Shown here: positions 29,352 to 55,730 of the stretch, in pieces
Position numbering within the stretch: position 1 is the stretch's first letter
Layout of the letters: every line of letters begins with the position of its first letter
Source of the DNA: an uncultured Planctomycetota bacterium
GTDB lineage: Bacteria; Planctomycetota; PUPC01
Length of the DNA: 55,730 bases
Direction: 5' to 3'
NCBI GenBank assembly: GCA_964505325.1
Contig: CAZDHT010000004.1
Span: forward strand, 1 to 55,730
Notes under the pieces: generated by a model
What the model was told of the DNA's origin: nothing
What the model saw: the letters and a program-made list of their open reading frames with translations, nothing else
The model's database searches: none
Position numbers and translations under genes: made by a program

Positions 29352-29476
29352 TCTGTCTGACAATTGGGCAGACAGGAAGGGACTCCGCCGAAGCGGCTAT
29401 GTCCCTCTCGCGAAGGCGGATGTCTGCCCCACCATCCTGGCTAACTTGAGGGGTGGGGCAGGCATTCTTGCCTGCC
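29352..29476 (-). repeat. GC-rich multi-hairpin repeat, copy A (REP/BIME-like or small structured RNA)
   Basis: A 58-nt core is identical to 51151-51208, in inverted orientation. It contains GGGAC-ATAG-CCGC-TTCG-GCGG-A-GTCCC, the outer stem GGGCAGACA/TGTCTGCCC and the hairpin GGCAGGCA-AGAA-TGCCTGCC. Confidence 0.8.
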
Positions 29477-29850: not shown

Positions 29851-29866
29851 TGGCATGCCATTTGCT
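29851..29866 (+). promoter_or_regulatory. sigma-54 (-24/-12) promoter
   Basis: TGGCATG-CCAT-TTGCT versus consensus TGGCACG-N4-TTGCW. The GG and GC are correctly spaced. It lies 104 nt upstream of the small ORF and about 800 nt from the sigma-54 activator gene. Confidence 0.6.
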
Positions 29867-29969
29867 CCTGTGCCTACCGAAAGCCGCTCAAGGAAGGGCG
29901 GCGGATGGGCTGATTCGGAGAGACAAGAGGCGTGCGTGGTGCGCGCTGGAAGTCTGGGAGATAAGGGCG

Positions 29970-30336: not shown

Positions 30337-32700
30337 ATGATGAAGGCAGTTTTGACCGTCACCGGCGGTCCTCAACGCAGCCGCCAGTGGACGATAGACT
30401 CGGACGAACCGTTGACCATCGGGCGAGGCAGCGACGCTGACCTCGTCCTTCTCGACTCCGAAATCTCCCGTTCCCACTGCCGGGTCTCGTGCACCGACGG
30501 CCGCTGGCACATCGAGGATAACAGCAGCCTGAACGGCGTGTTCGTTAATGGCCGAAAGGTCGCAGAAGACGAGCTCCGACACGGGGACACGATCCGCGTC
30601 GGCAGCACCGGCCTCCGCTTCGATATCGCCGCCGAAGCAGTCGTCGAGCGGGCGCCGGAGGTGCCCGTCGCCACGGGCACGTGCAGCCGCTGCGGCCGCG
30701 AGATCCCGTCCGATTCAGAGACCTGCCCGGTGTGCGGCAGGAAGGCGCCTTTCGAGGCTCTCGGCGTAGCAGAGGAGTTGACGCAGCCAGCGGCGCTCAA
30801 GGAAGAGCCGGTGAGGTTGGGCGAGCCGCGCAGACCGGCCGCTCCTCCCGAGGTCGTCGCGGCGCCCCGGGTCGTCCGCATCGAACAAGAAAACACGGTG
30901 CAGGAGTTCATCGAGAGGCACCCGCACGACACCTCGAACATCGTCCTCACCCGCAGGCAGAAGCTGTGGTATCTGCTGGTCATCGCGGCGTTCATTCTGC
31001 TGCTGAACGTGGACTACCTCTACTTCCTCCAGGTCGTTCATCTGCTGTGCATGTTCTACCTGGTGGTCATCGCGTACAAACTGGTCACCATCTTTCTCTC
31101 CGTCGTCAAGAAGTGGGAAATACAGGTCCAGCCCCACGAGATCGCCGCGTTCAAAGACGCTGAGCTGCCGATGTACACCATCCTGGTGCCGCTGTACAAA
31201 GAGACCGAGGTGGTCAACAAAATCGTCCGGCACATCTCCGAGTTCGACTATCCGAAGGACAAGCTGGACGTGAAGATATTGCTTGAGCCCGACGATCCGG
31301 GGACGCTGGAAGCCATCCAGCAGACTGGGCTGCCGGGCTTCTGCGAGGTCATCGTGTGTCCGGACTCGAAGCCGAAGACGAAGCCGAAGGCCTGCAACCA
31401 CGGCCTGGCGCGCGCTCGCGGCAGGTATACGGTCATCTACGACGCCGAGGACCGGCCGGAGCCCGACCAACTCAAGAAGGCGGTGGCGGGATTCCGCAAG
31501 GCCGAGGAGCGGTGGGAGAAGGGCCGCTGGCTCCGGCGCCTCAATCCGTTCGCCCGGGCCGAGGGCGGCCGCCCGGTGTGCCTGCAGGCGAAGCTCAACT
31601 ACTACAACCCGGACCAGAACCTGCTGACACGCTGGTTCACCATCGAGTACGCCACGTGGTACCAGCTTTACCTCCCCGGCTTGCACGCGCTGCGGGCGCC
31701 GATCCCGTTGGGAGGAACGTCGAACCACTTCCGCACCGACATGTTGCAGGAGATCGGCGGGTGGGATCCGTTCAATGTAACCGAAGACTGCGACCTGGGC
31801 ATCCGCATTCACAAGCTGGGCTATCGCACCCGGGTGCTCGACAGCACGACCTGGGAGGAGGCGAACTCCCAGGTCGGCAACTGGGTCCGGCAGCGGTCGC
31901 GCTGGGTGAAAGGGTACATCCAGACACATTTCACGCACATGCGCCATCCGTTGCGCACACTGTGGAAGTTGCACCCGTTGGGCATGTTCCACTTTCTCAA
32001 TTCCGTCGGCGGCCTGTCCGTCATGCTGCTGCTCAACCCCATCTTCTGGCTGAGTTCGCTCCTGTACGTCGGCCTGTTCACGATGGACCTTCACGAGCAC
32101 GGCTATTCGTTCGAAAAGGCGCTGGGTGTCGAAGAAGCTTTTCGGGACGCGACCGATCCGGACATCCCCGACCGGACCGTCCGGATACCGCATCCCAGCC
32201 GGTGGGCGTGGCCGATCATATGCGGCGCGCTGCCGGACGTGATGCCGCCCAAGGCAACGTGGAAGCAGAAGGTGTGGTCGGCGATCAAGGAGGACTGGCG
32301 TCACACGTGGCACGGGAGTTGGGCCCCGCCTCCGCCGCTTGAGAGCAGGGATTTCGCGGCAGGCGAGGGCCCGCTGATCAGCCCCCCGGCCTACGAGCAC
32401 GATCCGTGGCGCGAGATGTGGGCGCACCGGGGCTTTCATTTCTGGAACATGGCCTCCCAGGTCTTCTTCGTGGTAACCATCGTTCTCGTGGTTGGCAACT
32501 TCTTCTTCATGTTGATCCACGTCGTCGCGTGTCTCCGGGCGGGCATGCCGAAGATGATCCCCCTTGCCATTGTGATGCCGCTGTACTGGGTGCTGATCAG
32601 CGTGGGGGCGTGGAAAGGATTCCTGCAGTTGTTCCGGAGACCGTTCTACTGGGAGAAAACCCAGCACGGGCTGGACTTGAAGGCGGCGAAGGGCCAATGA
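30337..32700 (+). CDS. FHA domain + zinc ribbon + processive family-2 glycosyltransferase (cellulose/PNAG/chitin-synthase-like), polytopic membrane protein
   Basis: FHA: TIGRGSDADLVL.DSEISRSHCRV...NSSLNGVFVNG. CSRCG...CPVCG. GT2: ILVPLYKE, YDAEDRP, TEDCDLG, QRSRW (QxxRW). Multiple TM segments on both sides. Confidence 0.88.
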   Translation: MMKAVLTVTGGPQRSRQWTIDSDEPLTIGRGSDADLVLLDSEISRSHCRVSCTDGRWHIEDNSSLNGVFVNGRKVAEDELRHGDTIRVGSTGLRFDIAAEAVVERAPEVPVATGTCSRCGREIPSDSETCPVCGRKAPFEALGVAEELTQPAALKEEPVRLGEPRRPAAPPEVVAAPRVVRIEQENTVQEFIERHPHDTSNIVLTRRQKLWYLLVIAAFILLLNVDYLYFLQVVHLLCMFYLVVIAYKLVTIFLSVVKKWEIQVQPHEIAAFKDAELPMYTILVPLYKETEVVNKIVRHISEFDYPKDKLDVKILLEPDDPGTLEAIQQTGLPGFCEVIVCPDSKPKTKPKACNHGLARARGRYTVIYDAEDRPEPDQLKKAVAGFRKAEERWEKGRWLRRLNPFARAEGGRPVCLQAKLNYYNPDQNLLTRWFTIEYATWYQLYLPGLHALRAPIPLGGTSNHFRTDMLQEIGGWDPFNVTEDCDLGIRIHKLGYRTRVLDSTTWEEANSQVGNWVRQRSRWVKGYIQTHFTHMRHPLRTLWKLHPLGMFHFLNSVGGLSVMLLLNPIFWLSSLLYVGLFTMDLHEHGYSFEKALGVEEAFRDATDPDIPDRTVRIPHPSRWAWPIICGALPDVMPPKATWKQKVWSAIKEDWRHTWHGSWAPPPPLESRDFAAGEGPLISPPAYEHDPWREMWAHRGFHFWNMASQVFFVVTIVLVVGNFFFMLIHVVACLRAGMPKMIPLAIVMPLYWVLISVGAWKGFLQLFRRPFYWEKTQHGLDLKAAKGQ

Positions 32701-50117: not shown

Positions 50118-51052
50118 ATGGACGTGATTTGCTTCGGCAGCATAGTGGTGGATCACCGGCGCTCCGCAGAGACGTCCGGGACCGCGGCCGAGCCGCTCCG
50201 GATCGTCGATAGCGCCATCGACCTTCACGTGGGCGGCGTCCCCATCCTGGCGACCACGCTGCGGCGCATGGGCTTCGACGTCGCTCTGATGGGCTGCGTC
50301 GGACACGACATCGCCGGATATGGCCTGAAGCTCTATTTGGAGAACGAGATCGGGCTGAATGTCGAGGCGGTCAAGACCATTGACGCGCCGACCAGCACCT
50401 CCTGCATCCGATTGACGGAAGAACAGCGCTACGTCGACCACACCCCGGCGCCAGCGCGGAACTGGCGCCCGGCGATCGGGAGCTGGCCTTCGTCGAGAAA
50501 CACAAGCCGAAGCTGATGGCCATCGGGTACGCGGGCCTGCTTCCCAAGCTGGACGCGGACCGCGGCCGGAAGATGGCCGAGTGGATCGTAGCGGTTCAGC
50601 AGAAAGGGACGCTGGTCGCTCTGGACACCCACACCGTTCCGCCATACGCGATGCTGGAAAAACCCGTCGGCGTGGCGGACGTCTTCATCTGCAACAGGGA
50701 AGAAGCCTGCGGGATCACGGGGCCCGGCAAGGATTCCCCCGAGAAGGGCCTGGCCGCCATCTGGTCGAAGTTCCGCGCCCGCGATCCATCACGCTATCGG
50801 CTGTTGGGCTTGGCGATGGCCGAGGGAGTGCAGTTGGCTTACGGTCACGCAGGGGAGTTCGCCAATCAGTGGATCGCCAACCCGCATTTCGGCACGTTCA
50901 CGCCCGCCGACCTGACCGGCGCCGGCGATTACTTCCGCGCGGGGGTATATGCCTCGATAATGCGCCAACTGAGGGAGTTCGCCTCCGGTCAATTGAACCT
51001 GGTCCGGACGGGCCTTGCCGGCCACGACGTAGCCTACCAGCAGCTTCGATAA
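50118..51052 (+). pseudogene. PfkB-family sugar kinase with a frameshift
   Basis: MDVICFGSIVVD...GG...A..L.R.G in frame 0 and ...DVFICNREEA...TGAGDYF in frame 2. The frames join if one C is added to the C run at 50443-50446. Confidence 0.7.
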
Positions 51053-51150
51053 CGCCGCCCTTCCCGCAGCAGTTACCCACCATTGTTGTGTCCGTGCGAT
51101 GCCGCGAAGCTTCAGGTTGCCTAAGGAACTCTCACGAAACGGTGAGGCGA

Positions 51151-51236
51151 ACATCCGCCTTCGCGAGAGGGACATAGCCGCTTCGGCGGAGTCCCTTCCT
51201 GTCTGCCCGGTGACAGACAAGAATGCCTGCCCCACC
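51151..51236 (+). repeat. GC-rich multi-hairpin repeat, copy B
   Basis: ACATCCGCCTTCGCGAGAGGGACATAGCCGCTTCGGCGGAGTCCCTTCCTGTCTGCCC is identical to the reverse complement of 29369-29426. Followed by GGTGACAGACAAGAATGCCTGCCCCACC. Confidence 0.8.
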
Positions 51237-52029
51237 GAGGGAAAGGAACGGCATTAGAGCTTATCCAACAACCCTGAGCGTTGTTCACCCTCAGCCGTCT
51301 CTGGGACTCGTAAGCCCCTCTTTCAGAGGCTCTTACGCAAACCGCTGGCTGGCATTAACATTGTCCGACACAACACGCTGTCAAGCAAAGAGTTACGCCT
51401 TTATAGTGTGCCTGGCACACTCTAGAAGTGCAACATGTTGGCAGTCAAGCACTTGCAAACGGAGCATGCAATCCCCCACGTTGGGAGGCAGGGTTCTTGG
51501 ATGGCCTCTCAGTGGGGCGTACATTCTTGTCCGCCACCGGGAAGCTCAGCGGCAAATGCATAACTTCTTCTTTTTGGGCGAGTTGTGTACGGCCTCTGTG
51601 GCCCCGTTGGCGGAAGTCTGGCGTTGTGGTGTTGAGATGAGTTGACGGAAGAGCTGTCCGCCTCCACGCGCTGTCCGGCCCCAACGTACCCGACGCACGG
51701 TGCCGGGGAGCACCATCGTATCCCCTGCAAACGTCACAGGTTAGAGAAAACCGCACGGACAGCGTGTTTTTTTGGCAACGTCCGGTGCTCTGCGCCGCCC
51801 TCGGACTGAAAGCGATCCGGTGTCGTAACATCTTGCGCAACAATGCGTTAAGGCCTTGTTACAATAACATACAAGGCCTCGGCACGCGGTTTGCTCTTAC
51901 GGTGGGCAACTGCTGTGAAGCTTTGAGAGGGTAGCGCCTCTTATGGTCTATGGCACCGCAGTCGGGCGTCAACATAGAAGAGCGGAAGAAACCGGCCTCG
52001 GGTGCGAAGGAGGGGAAAGGGAGGTCCTT

Positions 52030-52209
52030 ATGACGTAGGGGACAGGGGAGGAGGAAAGCCCTGTAAACGGGGGGCTTTACGCGGCATGGCGAGCCGCGGC
52101 AGGCATTTGAGGACAGACCGCCGCGTCGCATCAGGACGGTGCGGTCTACGCCCTCGCCCCGGACGGGACACCGGACGTTTTCCTCCAGTGATCTGACCGA
52201 ACAGGTCGG
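52030..52209 (+). repeat. structured module R1
   Basis: Shares with R2 a G-rich 5' block, the hairpin CGCGGC-N7-GCCGCG (52080-52098) and an identical 24-mer GCCCTCGCCCCGGACGGGACACCG (52150-52173). Confidence 0.7.
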
Positions 52210-52767
52210 AACCACACCACACATCCCTTGGTCCAGGTGAGCGGCATGGCGTACCCCGCCGCACCGGGCTTCCGGTGTTCGGGCAGGCGCACGTGCGGGG
52301 GGACGGGCCGTGCGAAAGGCCGCAACGGCGCCTGAGTTGAGCGCTCACCAGCGGTGTCCCACATTCGCCAAGCGAAGGGGGAACGGCGCCATGCGAGCCC
52401 CGTCCGGCGGCGAAAGCGGCCGGGCGGGCTTAGCGAGCGAGGGAAGAGCAGCACAGACCTCGTGAGCAGTGGACAAGGAGCCCGGCCAACCCTGGAAGAA
52501 GGGAGATACGGCGGTAATGCGGACGGGATAGCCGCGGCAGCCATCGGAAGGGGCTCGCCGAAGCGTGGCGAGTGGCGATGCGTCGCTGACTATTCGTGGG
52601 AATGGAGGGGCTCTTCAACGGGGGAGACCACTCCAATCAAGCTAAAGCACCGGCTGCGCGGAGACTTCTTTCCGCGCGTCAGCCGGGCCGGAGGGCGGCA
52701 GATCCGGACGCCCCGTGCGACAGATCGACGTCGGCCTCCAGCGAAGAGTAGGAAAGGAGTCAAGGGA

Positions 52768-52945
52768 GTGACATAAGGGGATGGGGAAGGAGGAAAACCC
52801 CGCAACGGGGAAGGCCCTCGCGGCTTGGCGGGCCGCGACGGGCTCTCGAGAGGGAGAAGCGGGGGCCGTTGGCCGGCCCCTGCTTCAGCCCTCGCCCCGG
52901 ACGGGACACCGCAAACCACTTCCACTGACCTGGCGGACAGACGGG
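52768..52945 (+). repeat. structured module R2
   Basis: Paralogue of R1: hairpin at 52819-52837, identical 24-mer at 52888-52911. Confidence 0.7.
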
Positions 52946-53206
52946 GACTAGGCGCGGCGCGCGAGGAGCACAGCGCCGCCGCGACGGGCGTTCACGGCGC
53001 GTAAAGACCGCCGCCGCACCGTCCGGCCGGGGTTGTCGGACCAACGCGCCACCCGACCCGGCAACGCCGACGGCCCGCCAGGTCCCGTTCACTTACCTCC
53101 CAGACAGTTGTGGGCAGAACAGGCGCAACAATCGCAGCCATTTGCGCATCAGACAGGGGCTTCCCCCGCCTTCCGCACGGAAATTGCGAAAAAGGAGGCG
53201 TTACGT

Positions 53207-53248
53207 GTGATCAGACCAGATCGAGGAGCAGGGCCGCTCGCGGCGTAG
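53207..53248 (+). CDS. candidate 13-codon leader ORF (MIRPDRGAGPLAA) overlapping the terminator stem
   Basis: AAGGAGG (53192-53198) lies 8 nt before the GTG. Codons 9-12 form the 5' arm of the terminator. A GTG-TGA start-stop at 53205-53210 is an alternative reading. Confidence 0.25.
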   Translation: MIRPDRGAGPLAA

Positions 53249-53265
53249 CGAGTGGCCCTTTTTTT
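53231..53265 (+). terminator. strong intrinsic terminator
   Basis: GGGCCGCTCGC-GGCGTA-GCGAGTGGCCC (11-bp stem with one G-T pair) followed by TTTTTTT. Confidence 0.8.
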
Positions 53266-53335
53266 GTCCGAACGGAGGCTGGACGCATGAACGGTGGTCC
53301 GCCCGCCTGCCCGCGAGGGAGAAAGGAAAGAAGCA

Positions 53336-53503
53336 ATGCCACCCACAAAGATCTGCCGCCACGAAGGAGCTCGATTTCACTGCGTGCAGCGGCTGGGCAA
53401 CCTGCCGCCCGTCGAGCTCTGGCACTGTCCGACGTGCAAGAGCACGGTCTCGATCGAGGGCGCTTGTGCGGCGCCCGCGGCCCATCGCCGTGACGCGATC
53501 TGA
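53336..53503 (+). CDS. 55-aa CxH...CxxC zinc-ribbon-like protein, family copy B
   Basis: MPPTKICRHEGARFHCVQRLGNLPPVELWHCPTCKSTVSIEG.... Purine-rich GAGAAAGGAAAG upstream. Confidence 0.6.
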   Translation: MPPTKICRHEGARFHCVQRLGNLPPVELWHCPTCKSTVSIEGACAAPAAHRRDAI

Positions 53504-53688
53504 CGCACGGCGGCGAGCAAACCCTCCGGCGCCTGCGGAGGGAGAAAGGAGAACTGCCAATGGCGTGAACGATGGAGCAATCGGAGCGCAGGGACACACG
53601 GTCCGTGCGCTGGGCAAGGCCGCTCACGGCGCAGTGAGCGGTCGAACGTTGTGTTGGAACCGCTGTTCCAAATCAAGGAGACGCAGCA

Positions 53689-54408
53689 ATGTCTTTGGAA
53701 ATGGACGAAGTAAGTACTTTGCTGGATAAGGCTACCATCGGGGACCTGATCGAACTCGCGCTGAAGAGCAAGGGGGGCGAGCTCAGCATCGCCACGAAGC
53801 CGGAAGCCGTCTTCCGCAGAGAAGGCGAGACCTGGGTGCTCCAGTTTGCCGGCAAGACGGTGTACGCCAAGGACCGAATCGGGCTGGAGTACATCAGCTA
53901 CCTCTTGGCGAACCCCGGGAACGCTGCCCCCGTGATGTCGCTTTACCTGGCCGTGACGGGTGGGCTGAACGGCTTTGCAGCCACGCGCCGCCGCTCAAAG
54001 CACGACGCGCAGCACGAGCTGAACGGGTGGCAGATCTCGCGCGCGGGAACAGCCGAGGTGCTCGCCGACCCGGCTGCCCTGGCCGAATGCCGCGAAAGAC
54101 TGCGGGAAATCGAAGCAGAGCTCGCGCAGGCCCAGGCGCAGAACGACGAGGCGCGGGCGCTCCGCCTGAAGGAGGAGCAGGAAGGACTGCTCCGGTACCT
54201 CAACGCGTGCAACCGCCTCGATGGCCGGCTCCGGCAGGTGGCCGATGTCCGGGAAAAGATCCGCAAGTCGGTCTCCAATGCGATCTCCCGGGCGATTTCG
54301 GTTATCTTGGACGACCACGAGGTGCTCGGGCGCCATCTGAGCAACAGCATCAAGACCGGCTATAAGATGGTGTACAATCCGGAAACGCCCGTCGAGTGGC
54401 ATCTCTGA
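53689..54408 (+). CDS. hypothetical protein, N-terminal FRREGE.W...F.G......D..GL.YI..LL..PG motif plus coiled-coil region
   Basis: 239-aa ORF with AAGGAG 7 nt upstream and normal composition, including a Glu/Ala/Leu-rich heptad-like segment (ECRERLREIEAELAQAQAQNDEARALRLKEEQEGLL). Confidence 0.65.
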   Translation: MSLEMDEVSTLLDKATIGDLIELALKSKGGELSIATKPEAVFRREGETWVLQFAGKTVYAKDRIGLEYISYLLANPGNAAPVMSLYLAVTGGLNGFAATRRRSKHDAQHELNGWQISRAGTAEVLADPAALAECRERLREIEAELAQAQAQNDEARALRLKEEQEGLLRYLNACNRLDGRLRQVADVREKIRKSVSNAISRAISVILDDHEVLGRHLSNSIKTGYKMVYNPETPVEWHL

Positions 54409-54692
54409 GCTGTTGTCGGCAGGCTTAAAATAGCGCGGCCCTGAAAAAAATGGGGCCGTCCACAGGCCGCATTGCAGGCCCAGTGTGGGGGGCCATCTCC
54501 GGCTCTACCGGGGTGTCACACTGGGGGCTCGCACTGGGGCAAAACCGTTCCATAGCACCCCTGCGGGCCTTTCATGCCGTCTCCGCCAGCGCGGCTCTCG
54601 GCGCCGACGGCCGGTCAGGCCGTCGTGTTTCTCCCGATCCTCCCCGCTCCACCCTCCGGCAGATCCAAAAAAAAACGGGCCGCGCGCCATTT

Positions 54693-54728
54693 GCTACACC
54701 ACTTGTAGCACTGCTACACGATTTGTAC
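54693..54728. promoter_or_regulatory. two tandem operator-like inverted repeats
   Basis: GCTACA-CCACT-TGTAGC (54693-54709) and GCTACA-CGATT-TGTACC (54712-54728), about 135-170 nt upstream of the 54861 start. Confidence 0.5.
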
Positions 54729-54860
54729 CGCATAGGGTAGTGAGGGGTAGAGCCCCATCGGTGTAAACGTACGCGGCCTGTCTCCGTCCAGCCGGGTCGG
54801 CTGGCGGGGCGGCCGCACAGTGACGGGTCGCGAGCGGGCCCGTCGAAAGGAGATGAGGAG

Positions 54861-55130
54861 ATGGAAGTCCTCTTGGCGGCTCTCGCCACATTGGGAGCGA
54901 CGCTGCTCCTGATGTTCGGGGGCATTGTCCTGGTTGGCGGCGTCGTTTGGCTGTGCTCTTGGTGGCTGACGCGGGAAGAGGTGGCCCGGTTCGGGAACCA
55001 CAAGGCCTTCTGGCCCGGCTCTCGCGCCGCCTCGGCGCCCACGTCGATGGGGCCGGACAAGGCGCCGGTCTTTGGCGGCGTGTCCCTGAAAAAGGCCGGT
55101 CCCGAGCAGACCCGGCGCCGCGCGGCCTAG
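54861..55130 (+). CDS. small membrane protein (one or two N-terminal TM segments)
   Basis: 89-aa ORF with AAAGGAGATGAGGAG just upstream. MEVLLAALATLGATLLLMFGGIVLVGGVVWLCSWWL hydrophobic N-terminus and a basic tail. Confidence 0.6.
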   Translation: MEVLLAALATLGATLLLMFGGIVLVGGVVWLCSWWLTREEVARFGNHKAFWPGSRAASAPTSMGPDKAPVFGGVSLKKAGPEQTRRRAA

Positions 55131-55151
55131 GGCCTGTGACGCAGTTTCGGC

Positions 55152-55243
55152 GGGGCAGGCGTCCGCCTTCGCGAGAGGGACATAGCCGCTTCGGCGGAGT
55201 CCCTTCCTGCCTGCCCGGTGGCGGATACGAATGTCCGCCGCAC
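55152..55243 (+). repeat. GC-rich multi-hairpin repeat, copy C
   Basis: Same central hairpin as copies A and B. The outer stem GGGCAGGC/GCCTGCCC and the 3' hairpin GGCGGATA-CGAA-TGTCCGCC carry compensatory changes relative to copy A. Confidence 0.8.
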
Positions 55244-55277
55244 ATTTGGTTGGAGTTCTTCAGAAGGAGGAATATCC

Positions 55278-55439
55278 GTGGCACCCAGAGAGCCCTGTCA
55301 TCACGAACGCGCCCGGTTCTTTTGCGTGCAGCAGCTCGGCAGCCTGCCGGCGGTCGAGCTCTGGCACTGCCCGACGTGCAAGAGCACGATCTCGGTCGAG
55401 GGCGTCCGCCGAGCGGCCAAGCGGCCCGCTGCGGCGTAG
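55278..55439 (+). CDS. 53-aa CxH...CxxC zinc-ribbon-like protein, family copy C
   Basis: GTG start 7 nt after AAGGAGG. (M)APREPCHHERARFFCVQQLGSLPAVELWHCPTCKSTISVEG.... Confidence 0.6.
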   Translation: MAPREPCHHERARFFCVQQLGSLPAVELWHCPTCKSTISVEGVRRAAKRPAAA

Positions 55440-55618
55440 CGGTCGCCACAGACGCCGTGCTGCGACCGGGTTCCGTGCGTACCCGGTAGGTGGCACGGGA
55501 AGCGCGGACGGAGAAACGCGGAATTGGCATGAGCATGACGCCGGCCCGGCGGGGAGACCTGTCGGGCGGGACCAGGAGCAAGCGGCCGGGCGCGTGGCCC
55601 GGCAAGGAGGCAACAACG

Positions 55619-55720
55619 ATGACGAGCGGCGTGAACACAGGCAGTTTCCAAAACGCGTTCGGCCCACACGGCCGAATGGAGGGGAAAGGAGGCGTGGCGT
55701 ATGACCTGATTCGGGAGTGA
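55619..55720 (+). CDS. 33-aa hypothetical peptide
   Basis: ATG 8 nt after AAGGAGG. MTSGVNTGSFQNAFGPHGRMEGKGGVAYDLIRE. No family recognised, and it lies close to the window end. Confidence 0.35.
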   Translation: MTSGVNTGSFQNAFGPHGRMEGKGGVAYDLIRE

Positions 55721-55730
55721 GCGGGGCTTG

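Follow-up and report, generated by a model that had tools for sequence, protein, structure and literature searches.

The window analyzed here is a 55,730-nucleotide (nt) stretch of contig CAZDHT010000004.1 from an uncultured Planctomycetota bacterium. Its plus strand carries a conserved non-coding structured element between a promoter motif and a putative regulatory operon, duplicated in this lineage as R1 (52030–52209) and R2 (52768–52945). We regard it as fairly probable that a cis-acting structured RNA domain of ~150–190 nt is present in tandem as R1 and R2, in the leader of a sigma-54-dependent operon that heads a cluster of PEP-CTERM protein genes. As a structured RNA family, the R module is of a familiar general type and had not been described before; its unusual component is a minimal open reading frame (mini-ORF).

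A duplicated module and its homologues

R1 and R2 align over their whole length with 79% column identity, counting ~10 nt of flank per side, in keeping with the paralogy proposed in an earlier note on this DNA. Both contain the exact 24-mer GCCCTCGCCCCGGACGGGACACCG (52150–52173 and 52888–52911). With as many as three mismatches allowed, neither strand of the window has a third copy, and 24-mer matches occurred in 0 of 100 shuffled controls. Several elements described in that note are present as claimed, namely the C/G hairpin (CCC-TGTAAAC-GGG in R1 versus CCCC-GCAAC-GGGG in R2), the hairpin CGCGGC-N7-GCCGCG with loops ATGGCGA and TTGGCGG, the 7-bp variable hairpin of R1 with its 19-nt loop, the pairing of GGAGGAAA (52050–52057) with TTTCCTCC (52179–52186) in R1, and a GGAAG/CTTCC equivalent in R2. 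Other details required amendment. The long hairpin of R2 does have a 5-nt loop, but its stem comprises 13 bp, including one G·U, and not 11. The ungapped 5' consensus describes R2 but not R1, which lacks one base at each of two places (TAGGGGA versus TAAGGGGA and GGGGAGGAGG versus GGGGAAGGAGG). Likewise, the duplication is genuine but somewhat longer than first drawn, spanning ~51993–52290 and ~52732–53049.

Related loci were gathered by searches with the zinc-ribbon-like protein and the 239-amino acid (aa) protein encoded downstream of the leader, followed by contig look-ups, and represent several lineages. The copy in locus L011, together with R1, R2, and the orthologues of these two, supplied the sequences for a profile and subsequently for a covariance model. 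The covariance-model search, which had been proposed earlier, found homologues in related metagenome loci. In the window, R1 and R2 score 188 and 172.7 bits, and neither the model nor a scan with the 24-mer revealed a further R1-like module in the 55.7 kb. The 92%-identical relative L007 also has two copies, L011/L010 has one full module (132.9 bits), and L034 has one full module at 34.9 bits (E = 3.7e-8). L012 and L023 hold copies truncated by the contig end, L022 a weak, divergent module (24 bits) beside the end of a convergent PEP-CTERM gene, and L035 a doubtful, reduced remnant. Whether modules precede the same gene family elsewhere had been raised as a check; in relatives they do, lying between a sigma-54-type motif and the 239-aa gene. 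The 239-aa protein is only 45–54% identical in these lineages; the 16-mer CCCGGACGGGACACCG is invariant across relatives, and the 24-mer is kept at 22–24 of its 24 positions.

The two-copy state is lineage-specific, and relatives with a complete leader have one copy. L012 (1–91) and L023 (1–81), independent contigs from a related lineage, both start inside the module, 13–25 nt 5' of the 24-mer. Since assemblers break contigs at repeats, that lineage may likewise have more than one module.

These two contig breaks and the several other repeat families at the locus would also fit a mobile or dispersed repeat, such as a miniature inverted-repeat transposable element or a repetitive extragenic palindrome-like sequence, or repeats that encode small proteins. 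We find this extremely improbable. There are just two copies in 55.7 kb, both in one leader, and ~200 kb of related loci hold no convincing copy outside the syntenic leader, apart from the weak L022 match. The homologues are syntenic, not dispersed, terminal inverted repeats are absent, and no matches were found in phage, plasmid, or viral collections (BLAST of 51850–53270 against phage and plasmid sequences; viral contig scan). A coding function was rejected in view of stops in all plus frames of R1, R2, and R3 (the L011 copy); no minus frame is open in all three, and R3 carries stops in all minus frames.

None of 185,579 reference genomes contains the exact 24-mer. The relaxed pattern CCCTCNNCCCGGACGGGACACC has eight matches among them (Chloroflexota, Frankia, Streptomyces, and others), which we treat as chance because none is significant with the covariance model (best L028, 11.1 bits, E = 0.44). 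Scanning metagenome contigs with this pattern, which would miss L034 (CCCCC replacing CCCTC), gave eight loci, three of which carry the module, versus 0 of 185,579 reference genomes. No publication turned up in a full-text search with a segment of the invariant block. Rfam 15, run over the whole window at gathering thresholds, reported nothing but two tRNAs; there was no match at E ≤ 5 in 50800–53800 and none at E ≤ 1 in L011, L012, L022, and L034. The families covered include riboswitches, leaders, small RNAs, OLE, GOLLD, ROOL, HEARO, raiA, and the c-di-GMP and guanidine classes, and the module was assigned to none of them.

Predicted fold, covariation, and strand

The best reading of the predicted fold is a five-way junction closed by a GGAGG/CCUCC helix, P0 (Table 1), with consensus GGAGG(AAA) paired to (UUU)CCUCC. 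P2 is a small hairpin, P3 presents a conserved UGGCG loop, and the P4 base (consensus YGAGG with CCUCR) encloses a variable hairpin whose sequence and length are unrelated in every lineage. The 3' strand of the P4 base (CCUCG) comes from the early part of the 24-mer; the remainder of the 24-mer, including CGG-GACA-CCG, is predicted to be an invariant block that is largely unpaired or minimally paired. The CGG-GACA-CCG hairpin (P5) falls within the invariant 16-mer CCCGGACGGGACACCG. The earlier note had likened R1 and R2 to homologous structured RNAs that combine conserved single-stranded blocks with variable helices, and the distant homologues, which keep the stem pairing, support this comparison.

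The helices retain complementarity while their sequences change. Specifically, the P3 stem has four sequences in four lineages, all complementary and all with the UGGCG loop, and its outer helix is also present in R1, R2, and L034. In the P4 base, an A-U pair becomes G-C in L034, and the helix end is variously C-G, U·G, or U-A. The proposed closing helix is kept as GGAGG/CCUCC in L011 and as GAGAA/UUCUC in L034; because of the latter, it is the P0 pairing and not its Shine-Dalgarno (SD) identity that is conserved. Changes in L007 convert G·U to A-U in the outer P3 of both R1 and R2 and G·U to G-C in P4 of R2. In L012/L023, the equivalent of the hairpin at the 3' end of R1 keeps its pairing through G-C to G·U and G·U to A-U changes. 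P3, P4 base, P0, and P2 are thus kept with differing sequences, as expected of a structured leader RNA, in a small set of sequences from which the structure was itself derived. The earlier note had named a lack of further homologues, or homologues with stem-breaking substitutions, as evidence against its proposal; homologues exist, and their substitutions keep the stems.

Pair statistics were computed on the RNAalifold consensus of a five-sequence alignment. Pairs form in 88.8% of cells, versus 43–51% with the 3' partners slid by one to three columns, and 13 pairs are changed on both sides, versus 3–8 with slid partners. None of 500 shuffles attained the observed covariation score. Because the MAFFT alignment that includes L034 shifts P3 one column out of register, the helices were verified on a hand-made segment table. 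The first RNAalifold model, in which CCCU..CCCC from the 24-mer paired to the G-runs at the 5' end, was demoted in favor of the P4 base helix, since the U to C change in L034 is compensated in the P4 base and not in the G-run pairing, and L022 pairs GGCGAGGG with CCCUCGCC locally. The G-run pairing may form as an alternative fold or pseudoknot. A candidate kissing contact, in which GGCGAG in the loop of P3 would pair with CUCGCC in the 24-mer, is consistent with R1, R2, L034, and L022, but not with L011.

The plus strand is favored. The proposed pairs count 27 G·U cells, and pairing reaches 88.8% on this strand versus ~82% on the minus strand. The folding z-score of the whole leader is −7.6 on the plus strand and −3.65 on the minus strand, and that of the R1–R2 spacer is −3.9 versus −0.8. 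The modules also evolve more slowly than the flanking non-coding DNA (5.0–5.1% versus 8–19% divergence from L007). R1 diverges by 5.0%, R2 by 5.1%, and the 239-aa coding sequence by 4.8%, compared with 8.1% for the spacer, 8.6% after R2, 11.6% for 51321–51899, and 19% just upstream of R1.

DNA-level readings, like the mobile-element and coding readings above, are unlikely. The conserved blocks could act as double-stranded DNA, that is, as an operator or enhancer for a transcription factor such as an enhancer-binding protein or the 239-aa protein. In line with this, the 24-mer holds a short palindrome (CCCG-GA-CGGG), and sigma-54 promoters need bound activators, for which Proteobacterial PEP-CTERM genes have sites (PMC1569441). 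However, the three lineages whose module is full-length have it ~135–230 nt downstream of the promoter motif, whereas enhancer sites sit upstream, and the compensatory changes, G·U-tolerant substitutions, and whole-hairpin replacement are features of a folded single strand. An operator or enhancer is therefore very unlikely.

Table 1 Coordinates and sequences of the R modules, their leader, and related features. Positions refer to the window unless a locus is named.
Feature	Position	Strand	Details
Sigma-54-type promoter-like element	51881..51895	+	GGCAC-GCGGT-TTGCT (-24 GG / -12 GC)
R1 SD and mini-ORF	52019..52038	+	SD GGGAGG (52019-52024), N5, ATG ACG TAG (52030-52038)
R1 core	52039..52186	+	5' G-rich tract 52039-52049; P0 52050-52057 with 52179-52186
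R1 P2	52059-52063 with 52068-52072	+
R1 P3	outer 52074-52077 with 52101-52104; inner 52080-52085 with 52093-52098	+	loop AUGGCGA
R1 P4 base	52108-52112 with 52152-52156	+	encloses variable hairpin 52113-52151
R1 3' block	CCCC 52157-52160; P5 52164-52173	+	P5 CGG-GACA-CCG
R1 3' hairpin	52187..52209	+	CUGACC-GAACA-GGUCGG; poorly conserved in R2
R1-R2 spacer	52210..52767	+	structured; hairpin-element copy (52398-52428) like the one after relatives' PEP-CTERM genes
R2 SD and mini-ORF	52754..52776	+	SD AAGGAG (52754-52759), N8, GTG ACA TAA (52768-52776)
R2 core	52777..52923	+	P0 52789-52793 with 52919-52923 (GGAGG/CUUCC)
R2 P2	52798-52802 with 52806-52810	+
R2 P3	outer 52814-52817 with 52840-52843; inner 52819-52824 with 52832-52837	+	loop UUGGCGG
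R2 P4 base	52850-52854 with 52889-52893	+	encloses 13-bp hairpin
R2 P5	52902-52911	+
Leader remainder 3' of R2	52924..53190	+	weak homology to post-R1 region, as far as ~53049
Leader end	53191..53266	+	AAAGGAGG; start-stop GTG TGA 53205-53210; hairpin 53230-53259 with GGCGUA loop, then U7
Zinc-ribbon-like protein, 55 aa	53336..53503	+	CxxH...CPxC; first gene 3' of leader
239-aa protein gene	53689..54408	+	orthologues' leaders carry R module; orthologues head PEP-CTERM gene clusters
Zinc-ribbon paralogue	55279-55439
Second sigma-54-type motif	29852-29866	+	GGCATGCCATTTGCT; 15 bases identical to L011 motif 5' of module
SD + mini-ORF sites, window	52030, 52768, 53205, 53560, 55701, 29905	+
SD + mini-ORF sites, relatives	L011 1511, 3409, 4499, 6785, 10091; L006 3465, 4701; L012 2801; L034 266
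Mini-ORF, L011 (R3)			SD present; ATG TAG
Mini-ORF, L034 (R6)			SD present; ATG GCG TAG
PEP-CTERM-following hairpin copies	52398-52428, 55563-55612; L011 4382, 6609, 8256, 9974, 11316; L006 4541-4570
GGCG(U/G)A hairpins	53230-53259; L011 1864-1890; L013 ~1460-1490; L014 ~60-90; L034 133-157, 687-712; L002 ~2150-2180
P0 (closing helix) by lineage			R1 GGAGGAAA/UUUCCUCC; R2 GGAGG/CUUCC; L011 GGAGG/CCUCC; L034 GAGAA/UUCUC
P2 by lineage			R1 CCCUG/CGGGG; R2 CCCCG/CGGGG; L011 CUC-CG/CGGGG; L034 CCC/GGG
P3 (UGGCG loop) by lineage			R1/R2 CGCGGC/GCCGCG; L011 GCGAU/AUCGU; L034 GUCACGG/UCGUGAC; L022 AAGGCGA/UCGCCUU
P4 base by lineage			R1 UGAGG/CCUCG; R2 GAGGG/CCCUC; L011 UGAG/CUCA; L034 GGGGG/CCCCC; L022 GGCGAGGG/CCCUCGCC

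Promoter motif, mini-ORFs, and the surrounding locus

The sequence GGCACGCGGTTTGCT at 51881–51895 matches the sigma-54 −24/−12 consensus, and the promoter pattern GGCAYNNNNNTTGCW occurs twice in the window versus 0.32 times expected. Its core, GGCAC-N5-TTGC, is kept in L007, where both flanks are heavily substituted. Sigma-54 motifs are also found 5' of the module or its remnant in L011 (TGGCATGCCATTTGCT, at 1341), L034 (TGGCATGGAATTTGCA, at 15), and L035 (TGGCATGGGTTTTGCT, at 2047), and the module lies between such a motif and the genes in four lineages. Judging from the motif, it would be an active sigma-54 promoter from which the modules are transcribed. The second motif of the window lies 5' of an FHA-domain family-2 glycosyltransferase gene (30337–32700) and is followed by the mini-ORF at 29905.

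Haft et al. reported PEP-CTERM genes with large upstream regions and found sigma-54 motifs in Proteobacteria only (PMC1569441). The present locus shares with theirs the unusually large non-coding upstream regions and the −24/−12 promoter motif. However, their motifs are Proteobacterial and are sites on DNA, one for an activator and one serving as promoter (PMC1569441), whereas the R module lies downstream of the promoter, behaves as folded RNA, and precedes a putative regulatory operon and not each PEP-CTERM gene.

A feature overlooked earlier is that the block (A/G)TG-AC(G/A)-TA(G/A) forms a complete mini-ORF (start, a single Thr codon, and stop), with an SD sequence 5–8 nt upstream. From R1 to R2, ATG changes to GTG and TAG to TAA, preserving start and stop, and both are kept in R1, R2, R3, and R6 (the L034 copy), with a sense codon that is variable or absent. 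The units have the sequence make-up of minimal upstream ORFs, in that the SD is functionally spaced from the start codon and no more than one sense codon precedes the stop. Five SD/mini-ORF units occur on the plus strand of 51900–55730 versus 0.27 expected, a count reached by none of 1000 shuffles; the remaining 51.9 kb of this strand contains one, just 3' of the second sigma-54-like promoter. Mini-ORFs of one or two codons (ATG ACC TGA, ATG GCG TGA, GTG TGA, ATG TAG) head leader cassettes throughout the related PEP-CTERM clusters. Given their enrichment and preserved starts and stops, the mini-ORFs look selected.

A useful peptide cannot come from a mini-ORF, and a regulatory role of ribosome occupancy would therefore be the natural reading. 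Start-stops bind ribosomes and modulate expression in E. coli, where they were found by Ribo-RET, and a plant AUG-stop, that of NIP5;1, is cited in the same work (bioRxiv 10.1101/520783). The start-stops of E. coli lie inside genes (bioRxiv 10.1101/520783), whereas the mini-ORFs described here lie in leaders, recur cluster-wide at the 5' edge of structured cassettes, are conserved across lineages, and are known from sequence.

Ribosome loading could also serve a generic protective architecture that senses nothing, in which structure and ribosome-loading mini-ORFs shield the leader from Rho and RNases and R2 is a duplicated leader piece. Strong-SD mini-ORFs do occur in nearly all cluster leaders, including those without R modules, the spacer is structured too, and the locus is rich in duplicated leader cassettes. 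This explanation nevertheless leaves unaccounted for the invariant 16-mer and the conserved UGGCG loop, both kept at 45–54% protein identity while stems change, and the slower evolution of the modules relative to the rest of the leader; we consider it rather improbable.

Within 51053–53293 (~2.2 kb), no ORF has coding-like codon-position G+C content (GC3). This non-coding stretch is bounded by the stop of a PfkB-like gene (51052) and the zinc-ribbon ORF (from 53294). The leader measures ~1.36 kb here and ~0.4–0.8 kb in relatives, and its plus strand is purine-rich. BLAST matches of the spacer fall at the starts of L010/L011 intergenic regions. In L011, a hairpin CCCGYCCGG...CCGGGCGGG(ACCAG) opens the intergenic region right after the stop codon of every PEP-CTERM gene, and the presence of a copy of this hairpin inside the spacer suggests that the long leader was built from duplicated cassettes.

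At the end of the leader, 5' of the first gene, 53230–53266 has the shape of an intrinsic terminator, rated strong by a terminator scan. In L011, L013, L014, and L034, the 239-aa gene is preceded by a hairpin whose loop reads GGCG(U/G)A and whose stem covaries, mostly without a U-run. Such hairpins are found just 5' of 239-aa or PEP-CTERM genes in all lineages, with a U-run only in the window. A strong terminator that closes the structured region before the first gene would suit a leader that acts in trans, whole or as processed pieces: a large non-coding RNA ending at 53266 that titrates a protein, like a Csr/Rsm sponge, or base-pairs with transcripts. The folding of the whole 1.36 kb far better than shuffles (z = −7.6), the purine-rich plus strand, and the repetition of the modules point the same way. 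In relatives, however, the equivalent hairpin lacks the U-run and the leader continues straight into the gene, those with a complete leader have one module only, and the 24-mer has no complementary target in the window. We give a trans-acting RNA little credence.

Another non-coding element has three copies with 85–95% identity, at 51140–51235 (+), 55148–55243 (+), and 29366–29430 (−). It contains the hairpin GGGAC-AUA-GCCGC-UUCG-GCGG-A-GUCCC and has no Rfam match; one copy lies directly 5' of the zinc-ribbon paralogue and one 5' of a tRNA-Glu gene. Separately, ~360 nt of lower G+C content in 51378–51775 (+) are bracketed by a sigma-70-like promoter match (51378–51407) and a terminator-like hairpin with U7 (51753–51775). 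Positions 51508–51544 are 81–85% complementary to the 3' part of the three-copy element (51203–39 and 55211–43), and the 51378–51775 segment may be a small antisense RNA.

The zinc-ribbon and 239-aa genes head rows of PEP-CTERM protein genes in relatives. Zinc-ribbon homologues number only two among 5.8 billion proteins, and their genes always adjoin the 239-aa gene. The zinc-ribbon pair of the window comprises proteins of 53–55 aa with the motif C-x2-H ... CP-x-C. Pfam and NCBIfam assigned no function to the 239-aa, zinc-ribbon, or 89-aa proteins, and the AlphaFold model of the 239-aa protein (predicted local distance difference test score 50.8) is too low in confidence for use. The window as a whole is chromosomal DNA of ~65% G+C that encodes ETF, acyl-CoA dehydrogenase, DUF3604, HEAT-repeat, and Laminin_G_3 proteins. 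Near-identical contigs are known from salt-marsh and sediment metagenomes, and the closest named relative of a neighboring protein comes from a Planctomycetota metagenome-assembled genome.

Possible function and relation to known leader elements

The R module is probably a sensor or a protein-binding element. Because it has invariant unpaired blocks and a presented loop, we infer a cis-acting binding domain for a metabolite or protein, along with the steps by which it might work, namely signal, partner, and output. The earlier note's idea of a tandem arrangement of domains that bind a ligand or protein is a possibility for R1 and R2. The binding site for a small molecule or protein would be made up of the UGGCG loop together with the invariant unpaired blocks, and ribosomes on the mini-ORF would compete with formation of the 5' portion of the fold. 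The state of the domain, folded or unfolded, would then set the read-through and survival of the long leader toward the downstream genes, with termination at 53230–53266, Rho, or decay as possible output routes.

Several points weigh against a cis-acting RNA domain. The transcription start near 51907 and the transcription of the leader are presumed from the promoter motif only. Neither R1 nor R2 is directly followed by a U-tract terminator or a gene start that could serve as a riboswitch expression platform; the nearest terminator lies ~285 nt past the R2 module and ~1020 nt past R1. L013 and L024, which belong to the 239-aa gene family, have no module in the ~340–415 nt upstream, and the module family is very rare. 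The covariation statistics are weak, since they draw on about five independent lineages, two of them truncated, and on a structure derived from the same sequences. Moreover, L007 breaks two pairs of the weak variable hairpin of R1, and the P4 base has a competitor in the alternative pairing between the G-runs at the 5' end (GGGG..GGGG) and CCCU..CCCC in the 24-mer.

Among the closest parallels to a duplicated cis-acting domain are tandem riboswitch aptamers, such as the glycine riboswitch, and orphan riboswitch candidates, such as structured 5' UTR motifs that comparative genomics has uncovered. Shared features are the repetition of homologous folded domains in one 5' leader, a multi-helix junction whose unpaired nucleotides are invariant while its stems vary freely, a hairpin of variable length that keeps its position, and an intrinsic terminator further along the leader. 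The R copies differ in being 739 nt apart and not adjacent, with single copies in relatives, in lacking an Rfam match and a directly following expression platform, and in including a mini-ORF as part of the unit. A more specific proposal, which we hold only tentatively and think doubtful, is that the R module serves as the aptamer in a novel class of riboswitch, or as a novel leader responsive to a protein, for the regulatory operon of PEP-CTERM/exosortase surface-protein clusters in Planctomycetota. It would operate within a sigma-54-dependent leader, with translation of the two-codon mini-ORF next to the domain integral to the switch. If true, the riboswitch version would amount to a combined ribosome-plus-ligand gate, which has not been described for known riboswitches.

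SD/anti-SD leader helices and STAB-SD-type 5' stabilizers are known leader elements. The module resembles them in a GGAGG tract paired with CCUCC and in an SD-like sequence far from a long ORF. In contrast to these elements, the GGAGG of P0 has no following start codon and serves to close the domain as a helix.

In many environmental bacteria, PEP-CTERM/exosortase systems give shape to both the cell surface and the matrix of biofilms, and, to our knowledge, very few regulatory RNAs have been described in Planctomycetota. Proteobacteria are the only group in which the regulation of PEP-CTERM genes is understood; in other phyla, the large regions 5' of these genes have lacked an explanation (PMC1569441). 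The family described here is confined to uncultured lineages. Mini-ORFs that are systematically paired with structured cassettes offer a natural system in which to test the roles of start-stops in bacterial leaders, and a folded leader RNA at the head of PEP-CTERM clusters would be a first handle on their regulation in Planctomycetota.

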